Notes under the pieces: generated by a model
What the model saw: the letters and a program-made list of their open reading frames with translations, nothing else
What the model was told of the DNA's origin: nothing
The model's database searches: none
Translations under genes and position numbers: made by a program
In this document: piece after piece, positions 6,357 through 64,000 of the stretch
Layout: every line of letters begins with the position of its first letter
How positions within the stretch are numbered: position 1 is the first letter of the stretch
Assembly: GCA_038062675.1 (NCBI GenBank)
Contig: JBBTWP010000001.1
Span: 48,920 to 112,919, forward strand
Direction of reading: 5' to 3'
Source: Patescibacteria group bacterium
GTDB lineage: Bacteria > Patescibacteriota > Minisyncoccia > Phycocordibacterales > UBA1550
DNA: 64,000 nt

Positions 6357-6869
6357 CTACTCTTGGTTTTTGGGCAGATATTGTTTTCCCAGCGAGAACG
6401 GTTCATTCGAAAGTACCATCATCCATTGGTTGCAACTTTTGTGTCCGCTGTGCGAGTCGTGCCAGCGTTCGATAAGCTCAGTTTCCTCGAGCTTAAAGTT
6501 TTTTCCGTTCCAAGGATCGTGCAGGATGATGATACCATCTACGTAGCCTGACACAACGGCGTAGTGCCCGTCATCTTCAGATGGTTCAGTGTAATCAATA
6601 ATAACAGGAAGTCCGAGGTTTATAAAATATCTTATTTCATCAACCGATGAATCCGCGTTTACATAACAATAGAACTTTTGATGGAGCGCTGCGTCAATCA
6701 TGCCCTGGTGGCGGGTCCCCGTTTCATTGTCGGTGCTCGCGTGTTTCGCAATTTTTTTCTCAGTCTTAAAAGTGCCAAGAAATGAAAAAACCATTTTGAG
6801 CGAAGCGGGACCACAGGTGTATTCAGTTTTTTGTTCGTGGTAGGGGACGGTGAGTTTCATATCTTTCAT
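6357..6869 (-). CDS. papain-like cysteine peptidase, C39-like (Peptidase_C39_2)
   Basis: YTCGPASLKMV catalytic-Cys motif and a downstream GHYAVVSGY His motif; 4-bp gap to the downstream UDG gene (6353/6357), so co-transcribed. Confidence 0.6.
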   Translation of the reverse strand: MKDMKLTVPYHEQKTEYTCGPASLKMVFSFLGTFKTEKKIAKHASTDNETGTRHQGMIDAALHQKFYCYVNADSSVDEIRYFINLGLPVIIDYTEPSEDDGHYAVVSGYVDGIIILHDPWNGKNFKLEETELIERWHDSHSGHKSCNQWMMVLSNEPFSLGKQYLPKNQE

Positions 6870-7487: not shown

Positions 7488-7913
7488 ATGGAAAATACTG
7501 GATTATTTTACGCAATAGGGGCAGCAGTGGTATGGGGGTTAGTGTACACCATCGACCAGAAGATTCTTTCTGAGGTCTCACCTCTTATGCTTTTGTTCAT
7601 AAATTCAATTGTTACCGTAGTAATCTTGTTGCCGTTTGTATTTTTTACCAACACGAAAACAGTTTTCGAAGTTGGTAAAATGGGGTTGCTGCTTATTCTT
7701 GGGGCTAGCTTGTTAGCAGCCCTCGCAAATTTTTTTATTTTTTCGTCAATCAAATCACTAAACGCTTCGACGGCGTCAATAATCGAAGTCTCATACCCAT
7801 TTTTTGTCGTCCTTTTTAGTTTTATTATTTTTCGTGCAGTTCCCAATATTTATTTTTTTCTCGGTGGAGCACTTATTTTTGCAGGAACGTTTGTCATTAT
7901 TAAGCTTGCATAA
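7488..7913 (+). CDS. EamA-like (DMT superfamily) small membrane transporter
   Basis: Four hydrophobic helices in a 141-aa single EamA-like domain. Confidence 0.55.
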   Translation: MENTGLFYAIGAAVVWGLVYTIDQKILSEVSPLMLLFINSIVTVVILLPFVFFTNTKTVFEVGKMGLLLILGASLLAALANFFIFSSIKSLNASTASIIEVSYPFFVVLFSFIIFRAVPNIYFFLGGALIFAGTFVIIKLA

Positions 7914-9745: not shown

Positions 9746-9773
9746 GGGAGTAGTCTTGTGATACACTTTGAAT

Positions 9774-10493
9774 ATGTCGACACTTATTTTTGATATTGAA
9801 ACGGTTGGAGAAGATTTTGATGCGCTAGATTCTGCAACTCAAGACGTGCTCACAAAGTGGATTAAAAAAGAATCCGGAGCTCCTGAACATCAGGATGAAT
9901 ATGAACGGGCTCTACAAGACCTGAAAGACGGACTTGGCTTTTCACCACTTACTGGGCAGATCGTTGCCATCGGCGTTCTAGATGACGAGCGTGACAAAGG
10001 TGCCGTATATTTCGATACAAATGGCAAAAAGATGCCCGACCGCGAGGAAGCCGGAATGAAGTTTAAGGCGATGGGGGAGCGCGAGATGCTTGAAAATTTT
10101 TGGCGGGGAGTTGCCGAATACGATGCGTTTGTAAGTTTTAATGGGCGCGGGTTTGACGTTCCGTTTTTAATGGTTCGTTCGGCAATTTATGGCATCCGCC
10201 CATCCAAGGACTTGATGTCGAATCGATATGTCGGGAGTCAAGATTTTGGTGCGAAACATATCGACCTCTTAGACCAGCTTTCTTTCTATGGTGCGGTGCG
10301 TCGCAAGGGAGGGCTTCATTTGTGGTGCCGAGCTTTTGGCATCGAGAGCCCAAAAGCTTCCGGAGTTACCGGGGACGATGTGAAGAGGCTTTTCACGGGA
10401 GGACATTTTGAGGATATTGCGAAGTATAATGCGGGGGATTTGCGCGCCACACGCGAGCTCTATCATCGCTGGAAGAATTATCTCGCTTTTTAG
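9774..10493 (+). CDS. DEDDy 3'-5' exonuclease, PolB-exonuclease-like (RNase H-like fold)
   Basis: Exo I FDIET, Exo II FNGRGFDVPF, Exo III YNAGDLRAT; ATG at 9774 preferred over the TTG at 9768. Confidence 0.65.
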   Translation: MSTLIFDIETVGEDFDALDSATQDVLTKWIKKESGAPEHQDEYERALQDLKDGLGFSPLTGQIVAIGVLDDERDKGAVYFDTNGKKMPDREEAGMKFKAMGEREMLENFWRGVAEYDAFVSFNGRGFDVPFLMVRSAIYGIRPSKDLMSNRYVGSQDFGAKHIDLLDQLSFYGAVRRKGGLHLWCRAFGIESPKASGVTGDDVKRLFTGGHFEDIAKYNAGDLRATRELYHRWKNYLAF

Positions 10494-10628
10494 TGTTTCG
10501 GGAAAGTTTGTCGCTGGTGGAAAAAGCTTGCACAAAAAACCATTTTATACTACACTCACTCATAGATACAGAACATCGTGTCTGAAAAATAGTTCTTTGT
10601 ATTACAATCAACGACCTTGGAGGTCGCT

Positions 10629-10955
10629 ATGAAAAAGTTTGCATCACTGCTGTGTGCAGCTACTTTACTACTGTCCGTAACATTCGTTCCCACCATCGCT
10701 TCCGCAAGTACCATCAATACGGAACTTGCAAGCAACCCCACCGCCACTATTGCTGAAATCGAGAAGATTGGTTTTCCGATGTCGGATGAAATGGCCGGGG
10801 AGATGAGGGGGGAGTTTACTTGGTACAGTATTGCCCTTGGAATTATTTTTGATAACGCCGTGTTTGGTGCCAATGGAAGTAACATTCGTACTACTTTCTT
10901 TTCGCCGATAATGGCATGTTCTGCAACTGTTTCTGGAAGCGGGTACAGTTGTTGA
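10629..10955 (+). CDS. small secreted protein (signal peptide)
   Basis: MKKFASLLCAATLLLSVTFVPTIASA signal peptide; GGAGG RBS; paired cysteines at the C-terminus. Confidence 0.45.
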   Translation: MKKFASLLCAATLLLSVTFVPTIASASTINTELASNPTATIAEIEKIGFPMSDEMAGEMRGEFTWYSIALGIIFDNAVFGANGSNIRTTFFSPIMACSATVSGSGYSC

Positions 10956-10975
10956 ATTGGTTGTTTTTATGTCCC

Positions 10976-11007
10976 AAACGGGTCGGTTTACCCCGACCCG
11001 TTTTTTT
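10976..11007 (+). terminator. rho-independent terminator
   Basis: aaacgggtcgg-tttacc-ccgacccgttt perfect 11-bp stem plus T7. Confidence 0.85.
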
Positions 11008-11040
11008 ATTAAGATTCTGTATCATAATTTTTTTAAAATA

Positions 11041-11508
11041 ATGCTTAATTTTTTTAATCCCGTAAAAGCTGTTTCGGATTATCAGTCTGGGCTTATTTCA
11101 CAGCGGGGGATTCTTTTCCGAAGATATTTTTTCTTTGGATATATTTTTTTGTCTGTGTTTAGTATATTTTTTTTGCCAGTAACAAAATATGGTCTCTACG
11201 ACACCTTTTTTAGTGCTATTTTTCTTATTTTATATATAGGTGTTCCACTTTTGATAAACACAAAAATAGATGGGGAAAATTTTTACACTCGACTTGCGGT
11301 TGTGCATGTTCCTGTTCTTTTCACTACTTTAATTATCTCTACTATTTTGGCAGTATTAACAGCGGTGGTGGTTATTTTTGTAATACCTACGGTAAACATA
11401 GATGCAGTGGCGTTTTTATTACAAACAGTATTGATGTTTTTTAGTATATTTTTCATGGCGTGGTCTTTTAAAAAATACAAATTGAAAAAACCTCCACAAA
11501 AAATATGA
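11041..11508 (+). CDS. hypothetical polytopic membrane protein
   Basis: Four hydrophobic helices; start chosen downstream of the terminator, start uncertain. Confidence 0.4.
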   Translation: MLNFFNPVKAVSDYQSGLISQRGILFRRYFFFGYIFLSVFSIFFLPVTKYGLYDTFFSAIFLILYIGVPLLINTKIDGENFYTRLAVVHVPVLFTTLIISTILAVLTAVVVIFVIPTVNIDAVAFLLQTVLMFFSIFFMAWSFKKYKLKKPPQKI

Positions 11509-11692
11509 AAAAGATTAAGAAGTTTTTTGCATTGATATTTCAACACATTGTTGTTGCGTTAGTATCGTGGTTTTAGTAGTAACATAATCTGGGTAGAAGA
11601 AATAGTTCATCAATGGAGGGAAATACCTTGCGTTTTAAGCCACAAAAACTGAGTGTTTTGTTTGGAGTGCTTCATCGTGGTACGATACTTGT

Positions 11693-12508
11693 ATGTCTGA
11701 CTTTTATAAACCTCACCGAAAACCCGATTGGAATTATGGCGGTCCGCGCTGGCGTCTCTCTCGTTCAAAGATCGAGCTTTATACAGAGTGCCCTCGGTGT
11801 TTCTTTGTTGACAACAAGCTTGGCACGGCACGCCCTCGTGGACCCGCGTTTACTATCAACATTGCTGTTGACACCTTGCTCAAAAAAGAATTTGATGCGC
11901 ATCGTGTGGGGAAAACTTCTCATCCGCTCATGAAAAAGTATGGTGTTGACGCAGTACCGTTTGCACACAAAAACATGGATACATGGCGAGAGAATTTTGA
12001 GGGAGTGGAGTACAAAGACCCACAAACTGGATTTGTGATTTCGGGTGCAGTGGACGATGTTTGGGTAAACCCCGCCGGCGAGCTCATGGTGGTGGACTAC
12101 AAAGCAACCTCAAAAGAGGGAAGCATAGAAACGCTCGCGGATTCTTCATGGGAAGGGCAGTACAAGCGCCAGATAGGTGTGTATCAGTGGTTGTTGCGCA
12201 AAAACGGTTTTAAGGTTTCAGATACAGGGTATTTTGTGTATGCAAATGCAGGTACCGACAAAAAGGCATTTGATGGGCAGCTTGAGTTTGAGGTCACGCT
12301 GATTCCCTGCAAAGGAGAGACGGAGTGGATTGATACAGTATTGCTCGAAATAAAGAAATGTTTGGAGACCAACGAGATTCCCGAGGTCGGTCCACAATGT
12401 GATTTTTGTAAGTATCGCAAAGCAGCGCGCGATGTACAACAAGATTTTCGTGTAAAGAATACAAAAGAAGCAAAAACCGGAAAAGGAGGGGGAAGTTTGT
12501 TTGAGTAA
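11693..12508 (+). CDS. PD-(D/E)XK nuclease with Cys cluster (Cas4/RecB-like)
   Basis: E-x-DYK motif (ELMVVDYKATSKE); N-terminal CPRC and C-terminal C..C..CDFC cysteines suggest an Fe-S cluster. Confidence 0.6.
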   Translation: MSDFYKPHRKPDWNYGGPRWRLSRSKIELYTECPRCFFVDNKLGTARPRGPAFTINIAVDTLLKKEFDAHRVGKTSHPLMKKYGVDAVPFAHKNMDTWRENFEGVEYKDPQTGFVISGAVDDVWVNPAGELMVVDYKATSKEGSIETLADSSWEGQYKRQIGVYQWLLRKNGFKVSDTGYFVYANAGTDKKAFDGQLEFEVTLIPCKGETEWIDTVLLEIKKCLETNEIPEVGPQCDFCKYRKAARDVQQDFRVKNTKEAKTGKGGGSLFE

Positions 12509-23652: not shown

Positions 23653-26106
23653 ATGACCCCCTACGACCACAAAACAATAGAAAAGAAGTGGCAGGCCGCA
23701 TGGGAAGCGAAACAGCTCTATCACACGAAGAGCGACTCTCTAAAGCCGAAAGCATACGTACTCGACATGTTCCCGTATCCGTCGGGAGACGGGCTCCATG
23801 TTGGACATCCAAAGGGGTACATTGCAACCGATATTTACTCGCGCATGAAGACTATGCAAGGGTACAATGTGCTTCACCCGATGGGGTGGGATGCGTTTGG
23901 CTTGCCCGCTGAACAATATGCTATTAAAAACAAAGTGCATCCCCGTGTGGCAGTCGACAAAAATGTTGCGCGGTATAAGGAGCAACTTTCGGTAATTGGT
24001 TTTAATTATGATTGGACACGCGAACTCAACACAACCGACCCAGCATTTTATAAATGGACGCAGTGGATCTTTTTGAAAATGTTTGAAAAGGGGCTTGCGT
24101 ATGAATCCTATGAGCCTATTAATTGGTGCCCAACGTGCCAAACGGGGCTTGCGAACGAAGACCTTGATGGTTGCAACTGCGAGCGTTGCGATACGCTGGT
24201 GGTAAAAAAACCAATGCGTCAGTGGGTGCTTCGTATTACAGATTATGCCGATCGTTTACTTGCGGATATTGATGCGCTTAATTGGCCTGTGTCGATAAAA
24301 GAATCTCAAAAGAATTGGATAGGGCGAAGCGAGGGTGCAGAGATTGATTTTGTTGTCGAGGGAAGTGAGAAAAAAATCACCGTGTTCACGACACGCCCCG
24401 ATACGCTCTTTGGGGCGACGTATGTGGTGCTTGCGCCCGAGAGCAAAATTTTGGAAGACCTTAAACAACAAATCCTAAACGGGAACGAAGTTTCTCTGTA
24501 TTGCGAGAGTGCAGGAAAACAAAGCGAGATTGAGCGAACGACCGTGGGGCGAGAGAAGACCGGCGTACGCCTCGATGGAGTGATGGCGATAAATCCGGCA
24601 AACAATGAGAAGCTTCCGGTTTTTGTTGCAGATTATGTTTTAGGGCATTATGGTACGGGTGCTGTGATGGCAGTGCCAGCGCATGATGAGCGGGATTTTG
24701 AGTTTGCGAGAAAGTTTGGACTACGAAACAGAAAGGTTGTGTTTCCGAATCCTCTCGTCAGTGTCCCGAGGAATGCGAAGGATATTGCCATGGGGGTTGT
24801 TGGTGAGTTGCGTGTGGTCACTGAGTGTTTTATGGGAAGTGGTGAGATGGTAAATTCGGATCGTTTTACGGGATTTTTTAATGAAGACGCAAAAAAGCCA
24901 ATCACTGATTTTGTTAAAGGGCGCTGGGTTACGAAATATCGCCTCAAGGATTGGGTCTTTTCGCGTCAACGATATTGGGGAGAACCAATCCCACTCATAC
25001 ACTGCGAGAAGTGTGGCGTAGTTCCTGTGCCCGAAAAAGATTTACCGGTTATACTTCCCAATGTGGAATCCTATGCACCGACAGGGACAGGGGAATCACC
25101 CCTCGCGGATATTTCTGAATGGGTGAACACAACATGTCCAAAGTGTAGTGGGAAAGGGAAGCGTGAGACCAACACTATGCCACAGTGGGCGGGTTCATCG
25201 TGGTACTATTTGCGCTATATTGATCCGAAAAATACCGAGATGCTCGTCGACAAAAAACAAGAAGCATATTGGTCGCCCGTGGATATGTATGTGGGTGGCG
25301 CCGAGCATGCAACGCGTCATCTCATCTACGCGCGTTTCTACCACAAGTTTCTCTACGATATTGGTGTTGTGAATTACGAGGAGCCGTTTAAGCGTCTTCA
25401 AAATGTCGGACTCATTATGGCGGAAGACGGACGCAAAATGAGCAAGCGATGGGGGAATGTGGTAAATCCAGATGATATTGTGGCAACCTATGGTGCTGAC
25501 ACCCTTCGCCTTTATGAAATGTTTATGGGGCCGTTTGGGCAGTCGGTAGTGTGGAGCACAGAGTCTATTATTGGCCCTCGCCGATTCATTGAGCGGGTGT
25601 GGCGACTTGCGGATAATGTGAAAGAGGGAGAAGGTGATGCCAAGCTTGAAGCGGTGCTTCATAAAACAATTAAAAAAGTGGGTGATGATATTGAATCATT
25701 TGGCTTCAATACGGCAATTTCGGCGCTTATGATTTTGGTAAATGAAATGGAAAAAGCGACGCAGGTTTCGCGCGTGCACTACGAAACCTTGCTCCGACTT
25801 TTGGCGCCATTTGCTCCCCATGTCGCTGAAGAACTGTGGTCACATGTTGGCAATGTCGAGTCGATTCATCTTGAATCTTGGCCAGTGTTTGATGCGACAA
25901 AAACTGTTACAAGTCAGGTGGTTATTGCGATTCAAGTGAATGGAAAAGTACGCGACACCATGACGGTTCCTGTTGAAACAGGAGAAGTCTCCGCAAGCAC
26001 TATGGCGCAAGAACGTCCTACTGTAGCAAAATGGATTTTTGGAAAAAAAATAAAGAGGGTAATTTTTGTACCACAAAAACTTTTGAATATTGTGGTAGAG
26101 GAGTAA
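23653..26106 (+). CDS. leuS: leucyl-tRNA synthetase
   Basis: HVGHPKGY HIGH motif, KMSKRWGN KMSKS motif, CP1 editing domain. Confidence 0.95.
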   Translation: MTPYDHKTIEKKWQAAWEAKQLYHTKSDSLKPKAYVLDMFPYPSGDGLHVGHPKGYIATDIYSRMKTMQGYNVLHPMGWDAFGLPAEQYAIKNKVHPRVAVDKNVARYKEQLSVIGFNYDWTRELNTTDPAFYKWTQWIFLKMFEKGLAYESYEPINWCPTCQTGLANEDLDGCNCERCDTLVVKKPMRQWVLRITDYADRLLADIDALNWPVSIKESQKNWIGRSEGAEIDFVVEGSEKKITVFTTRPDTLFGATYVVLAPESKILEDLKQQILNGNEVSLYCESAGKQSEIERTTVGREKTGVRLDGVMAINPANNEKLPVFVADYVLGHYGTGAVMAVPAHDERDFEFARKFGLRNRKVVFPNPLVSVPRNAKDIAMGVVGELRVVTECFMGSGEMVNSDRFTGFFNEDAKKPITDFVKGRWVTKYRLKDWVFSRQRYWGEPIPLIHCEKCGVVPVPEKDLPVILPNVESYAPTGTGESPLADISEWVNTTCPKCSGKGKRETNTMPQWAGSSWYYLRYIDPKNTEMLVDKKQEAYWSPVDMYVGGAEHATRHLIYARFYHKFLYDIGVVNYEEPFKRLQNVGLIMAEDGRKMSKRWGNVVNPDDIVATYGADTLRLYEMFMGPFGQSVVWSTESIIGPRRFIERVWRLADNVKEGEGDAKLEAVLHKTIKKVGDDIESFGFNTAISALMILVNEMEKATQVSRVHYETLLRLLAPFAPHVAEELWSHVGNVESIHLESWPVFDATKTVTSQVVIAIQVNGKVRDTMTVPVETGEVSASTMAQERPTVAKWIFGKKIKRVIFVPQKLLNIVVEE

Positions 26107-30500: not shown

Positions 30501-31598
30501 ATGCCAAATAAAAAATCAACAACTTTAAAAAAACGTGTCTTCGTCGCCATGTCAGGGGGTGTAGACAGTTCCGTTGTTGCCGCGCTCTTGGTGAAAGAAG
30601 GGTACGCTGTCACCGGCGTTTTTATGAAAGTGTGGGAGCCTGATTTCTTGCCGTGCACATGGCGAGAAGAGCGACAGGATGCGATGCGTGTTGCCGCGCA
30701 TCTAGGGATACCACTTCTTACGTGGGATTTTGAACGCGAGTACAAAGAGGGTGTTGCCGACTACATGATTCGCGAGTACAAGGCAGGAAGGACCCCCAAT
30801 CCCGACGTGATGTGTAATAAGGAGGTAAAATTCGGTGCGTTTTTCCGTCGGGCTATCGCCATGGGGGCGGACTATGTTGCGACTGGTCATTATGCAAGAA
30901 TTGCGTTTGATCAACAGGAGGGCGTCTGTCGAATGTTTGCCGGAGTTGATGAGACAAAAGATCAGTCATATTTTTTGTGGACACTCGGGCAGGAAGAACT
31001 CAAAAAAACACTTTTCCCTATTGGGGAGTATAAAAAAATGAAAGTGCGGGCAATGGCAAAAAAGTTTGCATTGCCGACGGCAGAAAAAAAAGATAGCCAA
31101 GGGCTTTGCTTTGTGGGCAAGCTCGACATGAAAGATTTTCTTCTCCATTTTATGGAGAAAAAAGAAGGGGTGGTGGTGAATCAGGAAGGGGAACAGATCG
31201 GAACTCATCAAGGTGCATACTTTTATACACTCGGCGAGCGTCGCGGTTTTACGATTACAAAAAAAACGACTACCGAAACTCCTTACTACATTATTGCAAA
31301 AGATCTCGTTCAAAATACTTTGACCGTAGCACATAAAACGTCTGCGAAATCTTTGGAACAAGGAACAAAAGAAATACGAATCGCACAGATGAATGTGTGC
31401 GTAGGGGGTGTTTTCGATACTGAAAAAACCTATACAGCACGAATTCGCTATCATGGAGAGGCTCATGTCTGCAAAGCGCATAACCTGAATGGCACGTCTG
31501 CTATTTTGGAGTTTGAGAAACCTGTCCTTGTTGCTTCAGGGCAGTCTGTGGTGCTTTACGACAACGATGAGTGTGTGGGGGGTGGTATTGTGGAGTAA
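30501..31598 (+). CDS. mnmA: tRNA 2-thiouridine(34) synthase MnmA
   Basis: PP-loop VFVAMSGGVDSSV; catalytic cysteines. Confidence 0.9.
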   Translation: MPNKKSTTLKKRVFVAMSGGVDSSVVAALLVKEGYAVTGVFMKVWEPDFLPCTWREERQDAMRVAAHLGIPLLTWDFEREYKEGVADYMIREYKAGRTPNPDVMCNKEVKFGAFFRRAIAMGADYVATGHYARIAFDQQEGVCRMFAGVDETKDQSYFLWTLGQEELKKTLFPIGEYKKMKVRAMAKKFALPTAEKKDSQGLCFVGKLDMKDFLLHFMEKKEGVVVNQEGEQIGTHQGAYFYTLGERRGFTITKKTTTETPYYIIAKDLVQNTLTVAHKTSAKSLEQGTKEIRIAQMNVCVGGVFDTEKTYTARIRYHGEAHVCKAHNLNGTSAILEFEKPVLVASGQSVVLYDNDECVGGGIVE

Positions 31599-31623
31599 TG
31601 TCTCATTTGAAAGACTTCTTGCA

Positions 31624-32517
31624 ATGTGCGATGATATGGAGGATATGAAAAAAATACATCATAATGACAAAGCTGATGGCGGGGGTGTATGGGTCCTCAA
31701 GAATTCAGGCGAGCGAGAATTGTTTTCTTTAGAAAAACTCAAAAGGTCTCTCGTGCGATCTGGGGCGGATGCAAGTACCGTGGAACGTGTTGCGTCACAT
31801 ATTGTCCTAGAACTCAAGGACAATATGAAAACCTCGGCAATCTACCGCCACGCTTTCTCCATTCTTAAAAAGAATCAATATGTAGTTGCGCTTCGGTATA
31901 GTCTGCGTCGTGCGGTTGCCGATCTCGGTCCTAGTGGGTTTCCGTTTGAAAAGTTTGTTGCAGAAATTTTGAAGAGAAAAGGATATTCTACGCGAACGGG
32001 AATCATCTTGCCGGGGTTTTGTGTTTCTCATGAAGTTGATGTTCTTGCTGAAAAAGATAACAAACATATTTTTATTGAATGTAAATTCCATAATCAAGAG
32101 GGAATGAAAAGCGACGTAAAAGTGGCACTCTATGTGCATGCGCGGTTTCTCGATCTTCAAAAAGGTCACGAAAGAGGAGAACAATCTGCGTCAAGGATCC
32201 ATGAAGGGTGGCTCGTGACTAATACAAAACTCACTCATGATGCGATTCAGTATGCCAATTGCGCCGGACTCAACCTTATTGGTTGGGATTATCCTCACGA
32301 GGGGAACCTTCAAGATTTGATTTTAGAAACAGGAGTGCATCCACTCACATGCCTCATGAGTCTTTCGACTGCTCATAAAAACGAATTATTGCGACAGGGG
32401 ATTGTGATGTGCGTCGATCTCAAAAAGAAAGAGGAATCTTTGCAAAATCTCGGGCTTTCTCAGGAGAAAATTTCGAGTGTTATCAAGGAGGTGAATATGA
32501 TTTGTCGGGAAAACTAG
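31624..32517 (+). CDS. ATP-cone domain fused to Mrr-like restriction endonuclease domain
   Basis: N-terminal VWVLKNSGERELFSLEKLKRSL...VERVASHIVLEL is ATP-cone-like; C-terminal FEKFVAEILKRKGYS...HEVDVLAEKDNKHIFIECKFH is an Mrr_cat-like PD-(D/E)XK core. Confidence 0.6.
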   Translation: MCDDMEDMKKIHHNDKADGGGVWVLKNSGERELFSLEKLKRSLVRSGADASTVERVASHIVLELKDNMKTSAIYRHAFSILKKNQYVVALRYSLRRAVADLGPSGFPFEKFVAEILKRKGYSTRTGIILPGFCVSHEVDVLAEKDNKHIFIECKFHNQEGMKSDVKVALYVHARFLDLQKGHERGEQSASRIHEGWLVTNTKLTHDAIQYANCAGLNLIGWDYPHEGNLQDLILETGVHPLTCLMSLSTAHKNELLRQGIVMCVDLKKKEESLQNLGLSQEKISSVIKEVNMICREN

Positions 32518-33096: not shown

Positions 33097-33519
33097 ATGT
33101 GGATTGTCTATGCGTTTTTGTCAGCACTTACTGCCGCACTTGTGGCGATTTTTGCAAAGTTGGGATTGAAAAATATTGATGTTACGCTTGCCACTACAGT
33201 GCGCGCGATTATCATGGGTGTTTTTTTGATTATGGTGGCGATTGTGCTTCGAAAGTTTGATGGGTTTACCCTTGCGTCATTTTCGGTTCGTGAGTGGACA
33301 CTCATTACCTTGTCGGGTATTGCCGGAGCGCTCTCGTGGCTTTTTTATTTTTTCGCTCTCAAGACGGGAACAGCATCACAAGTGGTGGCAATCGACAAAT
33401 TGAGCGTGGTTTTCGTCGTTATTCTCGCCGTGATTTTTCTCGGCGAAGTACTTACATGGAAAACGGCACTCGGTGCGGTATTTATGGCAACAGGAGCAAT
33501 TTTAATGGTCTTAAAATAA
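33097..33519 (+). CDS. EamA-like small membrane transporter
   Basis: 140 aa with 4-5 TM segments in a single EamA domain. Confidence 0.55.
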   Translation: MWIVYAFLSALTAALVAIFAKLGLKNIDVTLATTVRAIIMGVFLIMVAIVLRKFDGFTLASFSVREWTLITLSGIAGALSWLFYFFALKTGTASQVVAIDKLSVVFVVILAVIFLGEVLTWKTALGAVFMATGAILMVLK

Positions 33520-59557: not shown

Positions 59558-60169
59558 CTATCCCCGATTTTTGAGCGCGTGGCGGAGGGTTTCGGAGTCG
59601 GAGTACTCGAGCTCGGTACCGGTGGAGAGACCGCGTCCAAGGGTGGTGATTTTGAGCCCATGTTTCTGCGTTAGTGGTTCAAGTGTCTTGGCGACATAGT
59701 CGCGGGTAAAATCGCCCTCAACGTTCGCAGAAAGGGCAAGGATGACTTCAGAGAGGCCTTCTTTTGTGCCGTGCTCGATGCGCGCCAGAAGCTCGCGGAT
59801 GCGAATTTTTGACGCTGGGTCGCGCTCAAGGACGGGGATGGTGCCACCAAGCACAAAATATCGTCCCGCATGTCCGCCGCTGCGGCGCATGTTTTCCATG
59901 TCGGAGTCTTTTTCAATAACCAAAAGTGCGCTTGGGTCAGCATCGCTTGAACATATGTCGCATATGGTTCCGTTGTTTTTGTGCGGATAAAAGCGAAAAC
60001 ATGATGAGCATTGTGCAATATTATTTTTGAGGTCGCCAATTTCGCGCACCAAGCTTTCGAGAAAACGCGGATCTTGAGCAAGGAGAAAATACACAAAGCG
60101 TTTTGCTTGGCGTGTCCCAATGCCGGGGAACTTCATAAATAAACTCGCAAGATTTTCGATGGTACTCAT
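59558..60169 (-). CDS. recR: recombination protein RecR
   Basis: HhH, C4 zinc finger and Toprim pattern. Confidence 0.9.
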   Translation of the reverse strand: MSTIENLASLFMKFPGIGTRQAKRFVYFLLAQDPRFLESLVREIGDLKNNIAQCSSCFRFYPHKNNGTICDICSSDADPSALLVIEKDSDMENMRRSGGHAGRYFVLGGTIPVLERDPASKIRIRELLARIEHGTKEGLSEVILALSANVEGDFTRDYVAKTLEPLTQKHGLKITTLGRGLSTGTELEYSDSETLRHALKNRG

Positions 60170-60184
60170 ACGGTGCCGCAGAAA

Positions 60185-61585
60185 TTAAAAATCATCAACA
60201 TTTCCCCCCGCACGGCTCATGCTCCCCGGATTGTAGTCGTGTTGCTTGTCGAGAGAAACAAACGTTGATTTTTCTTGATCGAAAAAAAGCTCAACTTCAC
60301 CAACGGGGCCGTTGCGGTGCTTTTCAACGATGATTTGGGCGATATTCGGCTTGTCAGAGTTCTCGTTGTATTTATCGTCGCGGTGGATGAAAATAACCAC
60401 ATCGGCGTCTTGTTCGATAGAACCTGAGTCGCGAAGGTCGGAGAGGCGAGGACGGTCACGACGTGTTTCAATGGCACGAGAGAGCTGTGAGAGGGCAATA
60501 ACGGGCACATCGAGGTCTTTGGCGAGCCCTTTCAAGGAACGCGAGATTTCGGTCACTTGGTTCACCATAGAGTCGTAGTGTTTTGCGGTACCCATAAGCT
60601 GGAGGTAGTCGATAATAATAAGTCCCAGTCCGTGCTCACTTTTCAGCTTTCGTGCGGCGGAACGCATCTTCATGATAGTGTTTCCTGCTTGGTCGTCGAT
60701 GAAAATAGGCGCCTTAGAGAGACGGTCAAGGGAGTTCCGGAGTTTATCGAAGTCTTCGTCAAGCGAAAGTTTTCCGGTGCGAAGTTTCCATGCGTTGACG
60801 CGGGACTCGGCTGCAAGCATGCGGTCGACAAGTTGCTGAGTGTTCATTTCGAGAGAAAAAATACCGACAGGAACTTTGTATTGAATCGCAGCTTGTCGTG
60901 CGATGTCGAGCGCGAGTGTCGTCTTTCCCATAGAGGGACGTGCTGCAAGGATGATAAGATCGGATTTTTGAAAACCGGAAAGAAGTGTATCGAGGGCAGG
61001 GAAACCACTAGGGACTCCGCGGAGCTCGCTTCCTTCTTTGTGCATTTTGTCGAGTCGATCCCACGCCTCTTCCAGTGTGTCTTTAATGTTGACGAATTTT
61101 TTGGTGACGCTCGCGTTGGTGATGGAGTAAATTTTTTTCTCCGCTTCATCCAAAACATTTTCAATCTCTTCTGCTTCATTATAGCCAAGCTCGGAAATGT
61201 GCTCGGCCGCTTCAATGAGTGTGCGCAGGATGTATTTGCGCTGAACCATCTCGGCATAGTATTTTGCGTTGGTCGAAGAGGGGACAGAGTCAGTAAGCTC
61301 GGCAAGATAGCTTCCTCCACCAATGCCATCAAACTTACCTCGCTCTTTGAGGCGTGCCGACACCGAAAGAAGGTCGATAGGTTCATGTCGCGTATGAAGC
61401 TCGATCATGGCATCGAAAAGCATGCGATGCTTTTCGACATAAAATGACTCACGGGTGAGAACATCGGCAACGTCGTACATTCCTTCAGGGCGGATCATGA
61501 GCGACCCAAGAAGGGCTTTTTCTGAGTCGATGTTCTGTGGAGGAATGCGGAGCTCTCTGGATTTAAACTGTTGTTTGGTTGCCAT
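60185..61585 (-). CDS. dnaB: replicative DNA helicase DnaB
   Basis: Walker A GKTT; conserved DnaB N-terminus. Confidence 0.95.
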   Translation of the reverse strand: MATKQQFKSRELRIPPQNIDSEKALLGSLMIRPEGMYDVADVLTRESFYVEKHRMLFDAMIELHTRHEPIDLLSVSARLKERGKFDGIGGGSYLAELTDSVPSSTNAKYYAEMVQRKYILRTLIEAAEHISELGYNEAEEIENVLDEAEKKIYSITNASVTKKFVNIKDTLEEAWDRLDKMHKEGSELRGVPSGFPALDTLLSGFQKSDLIILAARPSMGKTTLALDIARQAAIQYKVPVGIFSLEMNTQQLVDRMLAAESRVNAWKLRTGKLSLDEDFDKLRNSLDRLSKAPIFIDDQAGNTIMKMRSAARKLKSEHGLGLIIIDYLQLMGTAKHYDSMVNQVTEISRSLKGLAKDLDVPVIALSQLSRAIETRRDRPRLSDLRDSGSIEQDADVVIFIHRDDKYNENSDKPNIAQIIVEKHRNGPVGEVELFFDQEKSTFVSLDKQHDYNPGSMSRAGGNVDDF

Positions 61586-61601
61586 AGGGTCTATTCTAGC
61601 A

Positions 61602-61623
61602 TACCGCCCCTTGGGGCGGTATG
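61602..61623. other. perfect 9-bp GC-rich palindrome hairpin between dnaB and the SBP gene
   Basis: ataccgcccc-ttgg-ggcggtat. Confidence 0.5.
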
Positions 61624-61690
61624 GAGGAGTGGGGGAAAGTTGGTGGAAAAGAGGGGGATAGTGGTAGAAACCCCACGTTAACTTGAATTC

Positions 61691-62683
61691 CTACTGTATA
61701 ACCTTAGTAGCAGCACCCAAGGTTTCCTGATTGAGCGGAATTCCCAGTGCTTTGGCGTTAGAAACACTAATGATATATTCAATTTTTTCGGGTTGTTCGA
61801 AAGGAATCACTCCAGGGTTTTCTCCTGAAAGCACTTTGTTTGCTATTCGTGCCAAGGAACGTCCCATTTCGCCATAGTCTGGCCCATATGAAGCAAACGC
61901 TCCACTCTTAATTGCCGTTTCGTCAGGCATAATCATAGGGAGTTTTTCTTCGAGCGATCTCTTCAGGAAAAGGTCTGCCTTTGAAAAGAGCGACCCGTGA
62001 GGGTAGAACAAAATGGCGTCGAATTCCTTTTTTGTAATTTTGTTGAGAACGTTTTGGAGGTCATCCTTGCTCGGGTTTGTGAGTGGAAATTCTGTTAGGG
62101 TGACGCCAAGCTGGGGTGCTTGAGCATTTGCAATAGGTCGTGCCTTTTTTGTGGGCCCGCATGTAGTGTCGTACACAATAGCTATTTTTTTTATGCTCGG
62201 GATTGCTTTTTTGAGCAACTCAATTCGTTTTGGAGTGAGCTCGATGTTTTGTTGAGAAATTCCTGCCAGATTGAAGCCCGAACCTTGGAGTGTTTTAACA
62301 TACCCGTGTTCAACAGGATCACCAAGGGCTGTTAAAACCGCAATAGTTTTAGTTTTAGCAGTTATTTTGAAAGTAGGACCAGAGCTGATGGTTGTGATGA
62401 TGGCGGGGTTTTGAGCAATAGCCTCGTCTATGTATTGATCGAGCTTATCTTTGTCTCCTAGAGCATCTTTATAGGTGATGTTGACATTACCGTCGGGGCG
62501 AGAAGCTTTTAACGTTTTTATAAAATTGTCGAGAAAAATGCCGTACGTTTCACCACCCGGATTAATGACATACACTTGTTGTGCGGTTTGTTTTTTTGTA
62601 ACTGCACCTGTTTGTGACTTATAGATGTAAAATCCACCGCCGGTAAGTAGAAGTATTCCTAATAAAACAAAAAATTTTTTCAT
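61691..62683 (-). CDS. ABC transporter substrate-binding protein (ABC_sub_bind/BMP-like)
   Basis: N-terminal anchor MKKFFVLLGILLL; periplasmic-binding-protein fold pattern. Confidence 0.7.
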   Translation of the reverse strand: MKKFFVLLGILLLTGGGFYIYKSQTGAVTKKQTAQQVYVINPGGETYGIFLDNFIKTLKASRPDGNVNITYKDALGDKDKLDQYIDEAIAQNPAIITTISSGPTFKITAKTKTIAVLTALGDPVEHGYVKTLQGSGFNLAGISQQNIELTPKRIELLKKAIPSIKKIAIVYDTTCGPTKKARPIANAQAPQLGVTLTEFPLTNPSKDDLQNVLNKITKKEFDAILFYPHGSLFSKADLFLKRSLEEKLPMIMPDETAIKSGAFASYGPDYGEMGRSLARIANKVLSGENPGVIPFEQPEKIEYIISVSNAKALGIPLNQETLGAATKVIQ

Positions 62684-62740
62684 GATGCTGATTTATAAAT
62701 ATATCCACTGCTTATAGTAATACTTAAGTCTAACATGCAA

Positions 62741-62750
62741 GGGGGGGGGG
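62741..62750. repeat. G10/C10 homopolymer abutting a minus-strand -35 (TTGCAT)
   Basis: The minus strand reads CCCCCCCCCCttgcat-17-ctataa, upstream of the SBP gene. Confidence 0.75.
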
Positions 62751-62762
62751 TATTCAAAGTTT

Positions 62763-64000
62763 TTATTTGTGGATAAGTTTTGAAACCTTTTGTTCTTCTC
62801 CTGTGTCGATGACATCATAACCAAGAGCTTGAATGTTTGCACGTAGTTCGTCAGAACGAGACCAATTTTTGGTGAGACGGGCTTCTTTGCGTGCAGTGAG
62901 GAGTGTTTGAATTTCGGGGGGCACGACAATATATTTGGGTTCGTTTATGGAAAGCTGAAGTCCAAGGGCACGGTCGAAATCGAGAAGTGTCGCTGTTTTG
63001 TCGGCAGGAGAAAGTGCTTCACTTTTTGCGACTTCCCACGCAAGCGCGAGGGCGCGCGGGGTGTCGAGGTCGTTGGCGATAATCTCAGCAAAGCGCGCAC
63101 GATATTCTGCATGTATTATGCCTGATTCTGTCCCCAGATGAGTTTTGAGGCGCCCGAGGGCGGTCTGTGCTCCCTCAAGCGCTTCCCATGTGAAGTTTGC
63201 CTTTGAGCGATAGTGTGCTGTTAGAGTCCAGTAACGAAAAGCGAGGGGGTCAATGCTGTGTTCGATGACCATTTTAAGGGTGGTGAAATTGCCGAGCGAT
63301 TTCGACATTTTTTGTCCGTCAACGGTGAGGAATTCTTCATGTAACCAAAGTTTTGAAAATAGTTTTCCTGTCGCCGCTTCGGACTGAGCTATTTCGTTGG
63401 TGTGGTGGGGGAAAATAAGGTCAACGCCACCAGTGTGAATGTCGAGCGTTTCGCCGAGCTCGGCAAGTGCCATGGCGGAGCATTCAACGTGCCAGCCCGG
63501 ACGACCGCGCCCAAACGATGCTGCAAACACATTTTCGCCGTCGTCTTCAGTCCAAAATTTCCAAAGTGCAAAGTCCCGTGGATCTTTCTTTTCGTATTCG
63601 TCGGTTTCGATGCGAGATTGCGTTTCAGCGCTGAGGTCGAGGCGTGCGAGAGCTCCATACCCTTTGGATTTTTTTATATCAAAATAGACGCCATTGGGGG
63701 TTGTGTAGGCGTATTCGTCTCGCAAGAGTTTTTCAATGAGGGCGACCATTCCACCAACGTGGTCGGTGGCTCGTGGGAGTGCGTGGGGGGTTTTTATGTT
63801 GAGATGTGCGAGGTCCGCGAGAAATAAATTTTCATAACGACGCGTAAGGTCGCCCATAGTCGTCCCTTCTTCGCGACTTCTTGCTATGATCTTGTCGTCA
63901 ATATCGGTGATATTCATCACTTGCTTGACCATATAATTGGAATACTCAAGAGTACGCCTGAGAAGGTCGTTGGTGATGAACGTGCGTAGATTTCCAATAT
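62763..64000 (-). CDS. cysS: cysteinyl-tRNA synthetase (5' end outside the window)
   Basis: Translation continues past 63932 as ...IGNLRTFITNDLLRRTLEYSNYMVKQVMNITDIDDKI (HIGH region); KMSKSLGN present. Confidence 0.9.
   Translation of the reverse strand, partial: IGNLRTFITNDLLRRTLEYSNYMVKQVMNITDIDDKIIARSREEGTTMGDLTRRYENLFLADLAHLNIKTPHALPRATDHVGGMVALIEKLLRDEYAYTTPNGVYFDIKKSKGYGALARLDLSAETQSRIETDEYEKKDPRDFALWKFWTEDDGENVFAASFGRGRPGWHVECSAMALAELGETLDIHTGGVDLIFPHHTNEIAQSEAATGKLFSKLWLHEEFLTVDGQKMSKSLGNFTTLKMVIEHSIDPLAFRYWTLTAHYRSKANFTWEALEGAQTALGRLKTHLGTESGIIHAEYRARFAEIIANDLDTPRALALAWEVAKSEALSPADKTATLLDFDRALGLQLSINEPKYIVVPPEIQTLLTARKEARLTKNWSRSDELRANIQALGYDVIDTGEEQKVSKLIHK

Follow-up and report, generated by a model that had tools for sequence, protein, structure and literature searches.

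The window considered here is a 64-kb stretch of chromosome from a Patescibacteria group bacterium (GenBank contig JBBTWP010000001.1, positions 48,920 to 112,919). It is gene-dense, and nearly all of its genes lie on the plus strand. Between positions 9774 and 12508 four open reading frames (ORFs) follow each other on this strand. They encode a DEDDy exonuclease, a small protein of 108 amino acids (aa), a membrane protein of 155 aa and a nuclease of the Cas4/RecB fold (Table 1). The first and the last of them, simply called the exonuclease and the nuclease below, are the main subject of this article. With due reservation we consider it probable that they are two separate, vertically inherited housekeeping enzymes for DNA-end processing in repair, recombination or replication.

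The exonuclease belongs to the PF10108 family (DNA_pol_B_exo2); nothing that defines the family differs in it. It matches the family profile with an E value of 5.6e-21 (75.6 bits, cut-off 24) and also matches PF13482. Within 20 homologues D9, E11, N125, D130, Y220 and D224 are invariant, D9, E11, D130, Y220 and D224 being the catalytic residues. In fold comparisons the exonuclease domains of family-B polymerases are nearest, and the scores for the PolB type clearly exceed those for other DEDD nucleases (15.0 for ExoI, 14.0 for Pol III epsilon). Score, DEDDy residues and PolB-exonuclease-like fold are thus all those of PF10108. The family itself is experimentally uncharacterised; a fold like that of the PolB exonuclease domains has been described for this cluster (PMC3985635). 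A first reading of this DNA, made from its letters and called the sequence-only reading below, had proposed a stand-alone DEDDy exonuclease with its three exo motifs intact, and this it is. Homologues are numerous: 4,971 were found, of which the best 120 are 65-100% identical. A protein with 100% identity is encoded by a 265-kb contig from Hainich groundwater metagenomes annotated as Patescibacteria group bacterium.

The nuclease is a single-domain protein without a fused helicase. It passes the gathering cut-off of PF12705, the Cas4-like family outside CRISPR systems (E 8.7e-14, 52.5 bits, cut-off 22), and this domain is present in every one of the best 120 of its approximately 7,900 homologues. 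The Cas4 profiles proper are not reached, the scores being 17.2 bits for PF01930, which demands 22.7, and 33.5 bits for TIGR00372, which demands 65. Of the three profile matches that the sequence-only reading had envisaged, those to PF12705 and PF10108 were therefore obtained and that to PF01930 was not. None of the catalytic residues D121, D122, D135, K137, Q160 and Y164 varies among the 86 orthologues; with the PF12705 match, these intact motifs bear out the earlier assignment to the PD-(D/E)XK nucleases. Neither phmmer nor profile searches yielded a significant match of the nuclease to a solved structure, and it is therefore placed by fold comparison only.

Table 1. Coordinates of the four genes, their motifs and the terminator-like hairpin, numbered from the first letter of the window.
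Feature	Position	Strand	Remark
Stand-alone PolB-exonuclease-like DEDDy 3'-5' exonuclease, 239 aa	9774..10493	+	alternative TTG start at 9768
Exonuclease ExoI motif DIE	9792-9800	+	
Exonuclease ExoII motif NGRGFD	10140-10157	+	
Exonuclease ExoIII motif YNAGD	10425-10439	+	
Small signal-peptide-like protein, 108 aa	10629..10955	+	ORF list and gene call
Intrinsic-terminator-like hairpin, 11-bp stem with 7 G-C pairs, then T-run	10976..11003	+	directly after the 108-aa ORF
Polytopic membrane protein, 155 aa, ~4 hydrophobic segments	11041..11508	+	public gene call, hydropathy
Stand-alone Cas4/RecB-fold PD-(D/E)XK nuclease, 271 aa	11693..12508	+	
Nuclease CPRC (C33, C36)	11789-11800	+	
Nuclease DD motif	12053-12058	+	
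Nuclease D-Y-K motif	12095-12103	+	
Nuclease QxxxY motif	12170-12184	+	
Nuclease CDFC (C236, C239)	12398-12409	+	
Nuclease C-terminal SLFE tail	12494-12505	+	

A prominent characteristic of the nuclease is the arrangement of its cysteines. C33, C36 and C236 occur in all 86 orthologues and C239 in 85 of them. C206 (20 of 86) and C223 (72 of 86) are not conserved and were therefore ruled out as ligands of a cluster. Since only the CPRC and the CDFC pairs are conserved, the arrangement is 2+2, i.e., CxxC...CxxC. Cas4, AddB, Dna2 and EXO5 have one N-terminal Cys and a C-terminal CX2CX5C; in the nuclease, no Cys is found five residues after C239. Of 110 full-length representatives from the wider nuclease family, 99 keep the complete catalytic and Cys signature. 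One representative lacks all four cysteines together, as is to be expected if they form one unit. We infer that the four hold a single metal centre, which may be an iron-sulphur (Fe-S) cluster, as in Cas4, AddB, Dna2 and EXO5, or zinc. The N- and C-terminal Cys clusters that the sequence-only reading had likened to those of Cas4/AddB thus survive as the CPRC and CDFC pairs, whereas C206, C223 and the Cas4/AddB pattern itself had to be given up.

Is the nuclease a Cas4? It shares the RecB-type PD-(D/E)XK motifs and the fold with Cas4 (TIGR00372/PF01930). It differs, however, in three of the four features tested: the score cut-off, the Cys pattern (C...CX2CX5C in Cas4; C33xxC36 and C236xxC239 here) and the association with CRISPR. 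It is also about 60 residues longer, contains an invariant N-terminal W-N-Y-G-G segment and optionally ends with a '...LF' tail. As judged from its motifs, it probably acts like a nuclease of the Cas4/EXO5/Dna2 type, but it should not be filed as Cas4. From the Fe-S domains of AddB/AdnB, Dna2 and EXO5 and from the cluster-less MGME1, RecE and lambda exonuclease it is distinguished by standing alone and by its Cys pattern, and from AddAB, RecBCD and AdnAB by being neither fused to nor in one operon with a superfamily 1 (SF1) helicase. Its reaction would be that of a 5'-3' single-strand exonuclease or of a flap endonuclease.

Natural fusions occur in the wider family (representatives P0289, P0244, P0261 and P0274). 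They combine a family member with DUF2779 (P0289, 858 aa, from a metagenome-assembled genome of the Deltaproteobacteria), with NUDIX (392 aa, a 46-member cluster), with HD_4 (415 aa) and, in one representative of 489 aa, with GYF and TIR domains in the order GYF, TIR, nuclease.

The C-terminal tail is seen in about a third of the nuclease orthologues. It consists of a variable linker rich in Lys, Glu, Ser and Thr, which is followed by [ST]xLF or GLF[DG]; the window protein ends with ...GGGSLFE. An LF ending is found in 25 of 71 nuclease orthologues versus 2 of 1,238 other ORFs of the same loci (Fisher p = 8e-32). The orthologues concerned are those of loci L018, L030, L033, L035-L040, L047-L059 and others. 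The bacterial clamp-binding motif has the consensus QL[SD]LF, and the acidic tail of the type found in the single-stranded DNA-binding protein (SSB) ends in Phe. Recruitment peptides typically show this combination of a conserved end with a linker that is not conserved; the LF tail is therefore likely such a peptide, clamp-binding-like or SSB-tail-like, the likeness to SSB being the looser one.

Both enzymes are widespread and well conserved. Across the Paceibacteria/Parcubacteria, which belong to the candidate phyla radiation (CPR), they are about 55-85% identical. The best 120 homologues of the nuclease are 67-87% identical, and their named sources are Nomurabacteria, Yonathbacteria, Paceibacterota and Parcubacteria. 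When each GTDB species was represented by one genome, the nuclease was detected in at least 597 species. Its identity to the window protein, 56-71%, is only a few points lower than that of the conserved GTPase YchF at the same loci (63-84%). When 1.84 billion representatives clustered at 50% identity were searched, the Paceibacteria family came out as a single top representative with 477 bits, and the next full-length match had 344 bits; more distant clusters number 383 at E <= 1e-30 and 2,330 at E <= 1e-3. In phages, a tblastn search of 50,697 records revealed no homologue of the nuclease, and a phage origin was therefore rejected. Strong conservation throughout a lineage without a phage homologue is what has to be expected of vertically inherited core genes, not of defence or mobile genes. 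Solo-cas4 genes in general are also reported to evolve mainly vertically (PMC5704561).

The genomic setting of the nuclease is equally stable. In most species the order is YceG - MnmA - ATP-cone/Mrr_cat (- DUF7282/MgtC) - nuclease - an Ogt-like alkyltransferase of 86 aa. Among 71 Paceibacteria species loci, 60 have the gene for the ATP-cone/Mrr_cat protein upstream of the nuclease at a distance of no more than four genes; in 42, an Ogt-like alkyltransferase, Ung or a uracil-DNA glycosylase (UDG) of the family-4 type is found within four genes, and in 17 an HD_4 gene is nearby. No helicase cluster is among the conserved neighbours of the nuclease in these 71 loci. The window deviates from this order. 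Its YceG-MnmA-ATP-cone/Mrr_cat block is located at 29.4-33.1 kb with the nuclease slot empty; the nuclease is therefore found about 19 kb away, beside the exonuclease.

The ATP-cone + Mrr_cat protein comprises about 280-340 aa, and the ATP-cone is a nucleotide-sensing domain. The window copy (31489-32517) stays at the old site; its ORF, as listed, shares about 110 bp with the end of mnmA, and the true start is therefore probably a later one. Genes for half-size EamA-family transporters (~140 aa) occur at two separate sites of the window, 7488-7913 and 33097-33519, and one of them occupies the slot that is held by the nuclease gene in most other Paceibacteria.

How close is the relationship between the two enzymes? 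The closest relatives have their genes arranged as ATP synthase ... UDG ... methyltransferase - CAP - exonuclease - nuclease ... YchF. Both middle ORFs are absent there, and 24-80 bp separate the exonuclease from the nuclease. Beyond these relatives the linkage is real but loose and confined to part of the lineages. Loci centred on the exonuclease have the nuclease within 8 kb in 16 of 82 cases, and the nuclease is the single most frequent neighbour family of the exonuclease (14-16 of 82 loci). Relative to the exonuclease it lies downstream on the same strand at distances from +33 to +5,225 bp, upstream at -2 or -1,365 bp, or at +982 bp on the opposite strand. Methyltransferase and CAP genes, which precede the exonuclease in the window, are missing from the loci with -2, -1,365, +982 and +5,225 bp. 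In a rough neighbour-joining distance tree of this short protein, the exonuclease-linked nuclease genes fall into three groups; since the tree is rough and the samples are kin, we do not claim that the two nucleases were juxtaposed independently. The sequence-only reading had tied its fate to a Cys cluster conserved in homologues and to genes co-located in other genomes. As it turned out, the four cysteines are conserved and the two nucleases do lie together in some other genomes.

Genes of DNA repair recur among the other neighbours of the exonuclease. It adjoins PolX and RarA in one setting and lies between RecA and UvrB-TatD-UvrA in another. The clusters that recur in the fetched exonuclease loci include TatD (7 loci), UvrB (5), a Pif1-like helicase (5) and LexA (4). 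It is the exonuclease and not the nuclease that has the Pif1-like helicase as a neighbour. A Pif1-like helicase with a C-terminal HTH_40 directly follows the exonuclease in several Patescibacteria metagenome contigs (L093, L096, L168 and others), and a LexA gene is near the exonuclease in other contigs (L099, L100).

The two ORFs between the nucleases are an insertion and no part of a conserved unit. Neither of them gave a tblastn match in about 160 related loci, and both are seen solely on contigs with an identical exonuclease gene. The 108-aa ORF has no Pfam or PADLOC family, and the 155-aa membrane ORF belongs to no known family. A four-gene operon is thereby ruled out, the more so as a terminator follows the first of the two, and the four-gene arrangement that the sequence-only reading expected to recur in relatives does not do so. 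Its description of the individual proteins holds: the small one has an N-terminal hydrophobic segment (residues 3-27) and cysteines 97 and 108 in its mature region, and the other is polytopic in the 155-aa reading. A longer version of the latter, 183 aa starting at 10957, was discarded. Its 5' end would contain the terminator hairpin, and public gene calls start at 11041, which is therefore the probable start. Since the terminator follows the 108-aa ORF, the insertion would also separate the transcripts of exonuclease and nuclease in the window genome. The layout of the small pair recalls a toxin or bacteriocin with its immunity protein; nothing supports this.

Our view of the two nucleases as housekeeping enzymes draws on their domain identity, the intact catalytic motifs, the conservation, the housekeeping context and the repair neighbours; no match to a defence system or a mobile element was found. 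The exonuclease, with the fold of a PolB proofreading domain, would remove nucleotides from 3' ends. The nuclease would cleave single-stranded DNA in the 5'-3' direction or flaps. Together they would process DNA ends or flaps with opposite polarity during repair, recombination or replication, and the '...LF' tail would recruit the nuclease to a hub protein, e.g., the sliding clamp. The nuclease gene lies beside the exonuclease gene in the lineage of the window, and in the window genome itself two unrelated small genes, one of them with a terminator, were inserted in between.

Several observations do not fit this picture well. Only 2 of the 80 species loci with the nuclease at their centre have the exonuclease no farther than 10 kb away, so that an obligate partnership is not supported, and in the window genome a terminator stands between the two. 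Phylogenetically, the loci sampled are not independent of each other, and in the small, syntenic CPR genomes a neighbourhood is a weak signal. A conservation near the level of YchF is unusual for a repair enzyme. The LF tail matches the clamp-binding consensus in part, and two thirds of the orthologues are devoid of it. Fusions to NUDIX, HD_4 and TIR point to nucleotide metabolism, RNA 5'-end processing and defence. Finally, the polarity and the substrate (DNA or RNA) of the two families and the nature of the metal centre are predictions.

A more ambitious interpretation starts from known fusions. Cas4-like domains occur in fusion with DUF2779 and COG2251, two families of RNase H-like exonucleases, COG2251 being within PF13482 (PMC3985635). 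MMSYN1_0389 of JCVI-syn3.0, a DUF2779 protein, combines a Cas4-like domain with a DEDD exonuclease of the Tyr type; it is quasi-essential and thought to act beyond immunity (PMC13621843). The DUF2779 (PF11074)/COG2251 fusions thus unite the same two enzyme types, the Tyr-type DEDD included, in bacteria with reduced genomes. By analogy, nuclease and exonuclease could be a split version of such a Cas4-DEDD fusion, a two-polarity end or flap module in an unrecognised, near-essential pathway of DNA maintenance in reduced-genome bacteria. If true, the module might, e.g., replace RecBCD/AddAB/RecJ or mature Okazaki fragments like eukaryotic Dna2, Pif1 and the PolB exonuclease, and the LF tail would recruit it to the replisome. 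We regard this as a tentative idea, rather unlikely to be correct as it stands.

The fusions are one polypeptide, whereas the window has two genes, which are adjacent in some lineages only. MMSYN1_0389 keeps two cysteines, the nuclease family four. Neither window nuclease matches PF11074 at E <= 0.1, and no polypeptide in which exonuclease and nuclease are fused is among the 240 homologues listed, the best 120 of each. In P0289, the protein of 858 aa mentioned above, DUF2779 is followed by a copy of the nuclease family (44% identity, hhalign E 4e-55). The profile of the exonuclease did not align with the DUF2779 part of P0289 (hhalign probability 0.2), which is a weak negative in view of its shallowness (Neff 1.8). 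The parallel to DUF2779 is therefore one of analogy, not of shown homology.

Nucleotide salvage has also to be considered. Two exonucleases of opposite polarity might degrade imported or damaged DNA to mononucleotides, the ATP-cone/Mrr-type nuclease possibly serving as a sensor of the pool. As a rule, CPR bacteria are regarded as unable to synthesise nucleotides de novo. The ATP-cone + Mrr_cat protein is indeed encoded at most four genes upstream of the nuclease in the 60 of 71 species loci mentioned, in one Nomurabacteria genome the gene after the nuclease encodes a UMPH-1 nucleotidase, HD_4 genes are near it in 17 of the 71 loci, members of the wider family are fused to HD_4 and NUDIX, and TatD is a frequent neighbour of the exonuclease. 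However, the synteny block also holds unrelated housekeeping genes, so that adjacency may just be inherited order. Ogt, UDG, UvrB, PolX, LexA and Pif1 as neighbours point to repair, not to catabolism, and a recruitment-type C-terminal tail fits a targeted enzyme better than a bulk degrader. Salvage thus appears an unlikely main function.

Alternatively, the substrate could be RNA. The nuclease might be a 5'-end-dependent exoribonuclease or RNA processor with a function like that of DXO/Rai1, which would explain why it is conserved like genes of translation and RNA housekeeping. We consider this quite improbable.

The sequence-only reading had envisaged an uncharacterised DNA-processing or defence unit. 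DNA processing remains plausible; the defence island is not supported, the context being one of housekeeping genes without a match to any system. Of course, an orphan Cas4-like nuclease, either by itself or together with the exonuclease and the small genes, might represent an uncharacterised system against phages or plasmids. A role in defence is indeed played by some solo or accessory members of the Cas4 family, e.g., ACE1 with Argonaute, and one representative of the wider family is fused to GYF and TIR. The Cas4 models of PADLOC-DB 2.0 match the nuclease with E values from 3e-11 to 5e-3. These are, however, domain-level matches and the only ones to the nuclease; the exonuclease and both small ORFs gave none, and among ten neighbours one generic methyltransferase-domain match (mad2) was obtained, the other nine being empty and none a defence component. 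In all, 14 proteins were tested, and no known multi-component defence system was recognised among them; the PADLOC search that the sequence-only reading recommended thus came out negative.

Its statement that a CRISPR-Cas context is lacking proved correct. The whole 64-kb window contains no repeat array, and neither cas1/cas2 nor another cas family was found among its approximately 45 larger ORFs, the portion scanned with Pfam. Likewise, no cas family appeared among the Pfam-annotated genes of the inspected related loci or among the scanned cluster representatives. The sole helicase found in the Pfam scan of the window is the replicative DnaB (60185-61585). With the strong conservation of the nuclease in at least 597 species, its stable housekeeping synteny, the missing phage homologue and middle genes that are not conserved, a defence function seems very improbable. 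That the locus is what is left of a mobile element (a prophage, a casposon or a recombination module derived from a plasmid) is hardly credible: Cas4-like nucleases and PolB-related genes do occur in casposons and phages (PMC5704561), and a slightly lower GC content at 10-12 kb (0.414) coincides with the inserted small ORFs, but no phage homologue, integrase, polymerase or terminal repeat was found, related genomes have the same flanking genes, and the pattern of conservation fits vertical inheritance.

Solo Cas4 genes have already been described in CPR genomes, where they are over-represented and their function is unknown (PMC5704561, Hudaiberdiev et al. 2017). New are the 2+2 variant of the Cys pattern, the terminal LF motif, the conservation near that of YchF, the neighbourhoods of repair genes and the parallel to DUF2779. 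Orphan 'cas4' matches in Patescibacteria are at times taken for incomplete CRISPR or defence systems; the present nuclease family behaves as a core chromosomal gene. If the proposed role holds, we are dealing with an experimentally untouched nuclease that is very strongly conserved in a large, uncultivated class of bacteria and whose function would help to explain how DNA is maintained in bacteria with very small genomes. Its link to the exonuclease would, by analogy, parallel a quasi-essential JCVI-syn3.0 gene of unknown role.

The remaining genes of the window are those of an ordinary chromosome, here that of a groundwater bacterium from the Paceibacteria (Parcubacteria/CPR). They include ATP synthase subunits, UDG, a methyltransferase, a CAP-domain protein, a P-type ATPase, an AI-2E transporter, YchF and LeuRS, further a sigma-like HARE-HTH protein, YceG, MnmA, the ATP-cone/Mrr_cat protein, MgtC and AlaRS, and finally DnaK, DnaJ, TyrRS, a histidine kinase and DnaB. 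Neither a tRNA nor an Rfam match was detected in the 64 kb. Up to about 59.5 kb nearly all genes are on the plus strand, and the GC skew is positive throughout (1-59500). The last four large ORFs (59558-63932), dnaB among them, are on the minus strand, and the skew keeps its sign. A stand-alone Peptidase_C39 gene is encoded on the minus strand at 6357-6869, 4 kb upstream of the small ORFs. The LeuRS of Nomurabacteria CG1_02_43_90 (945 aa; L001, 10941-12807) shows a NUDIX match between its synthetase domains; the LeuRS of the window (23653-26106, 817 aa) shows none.

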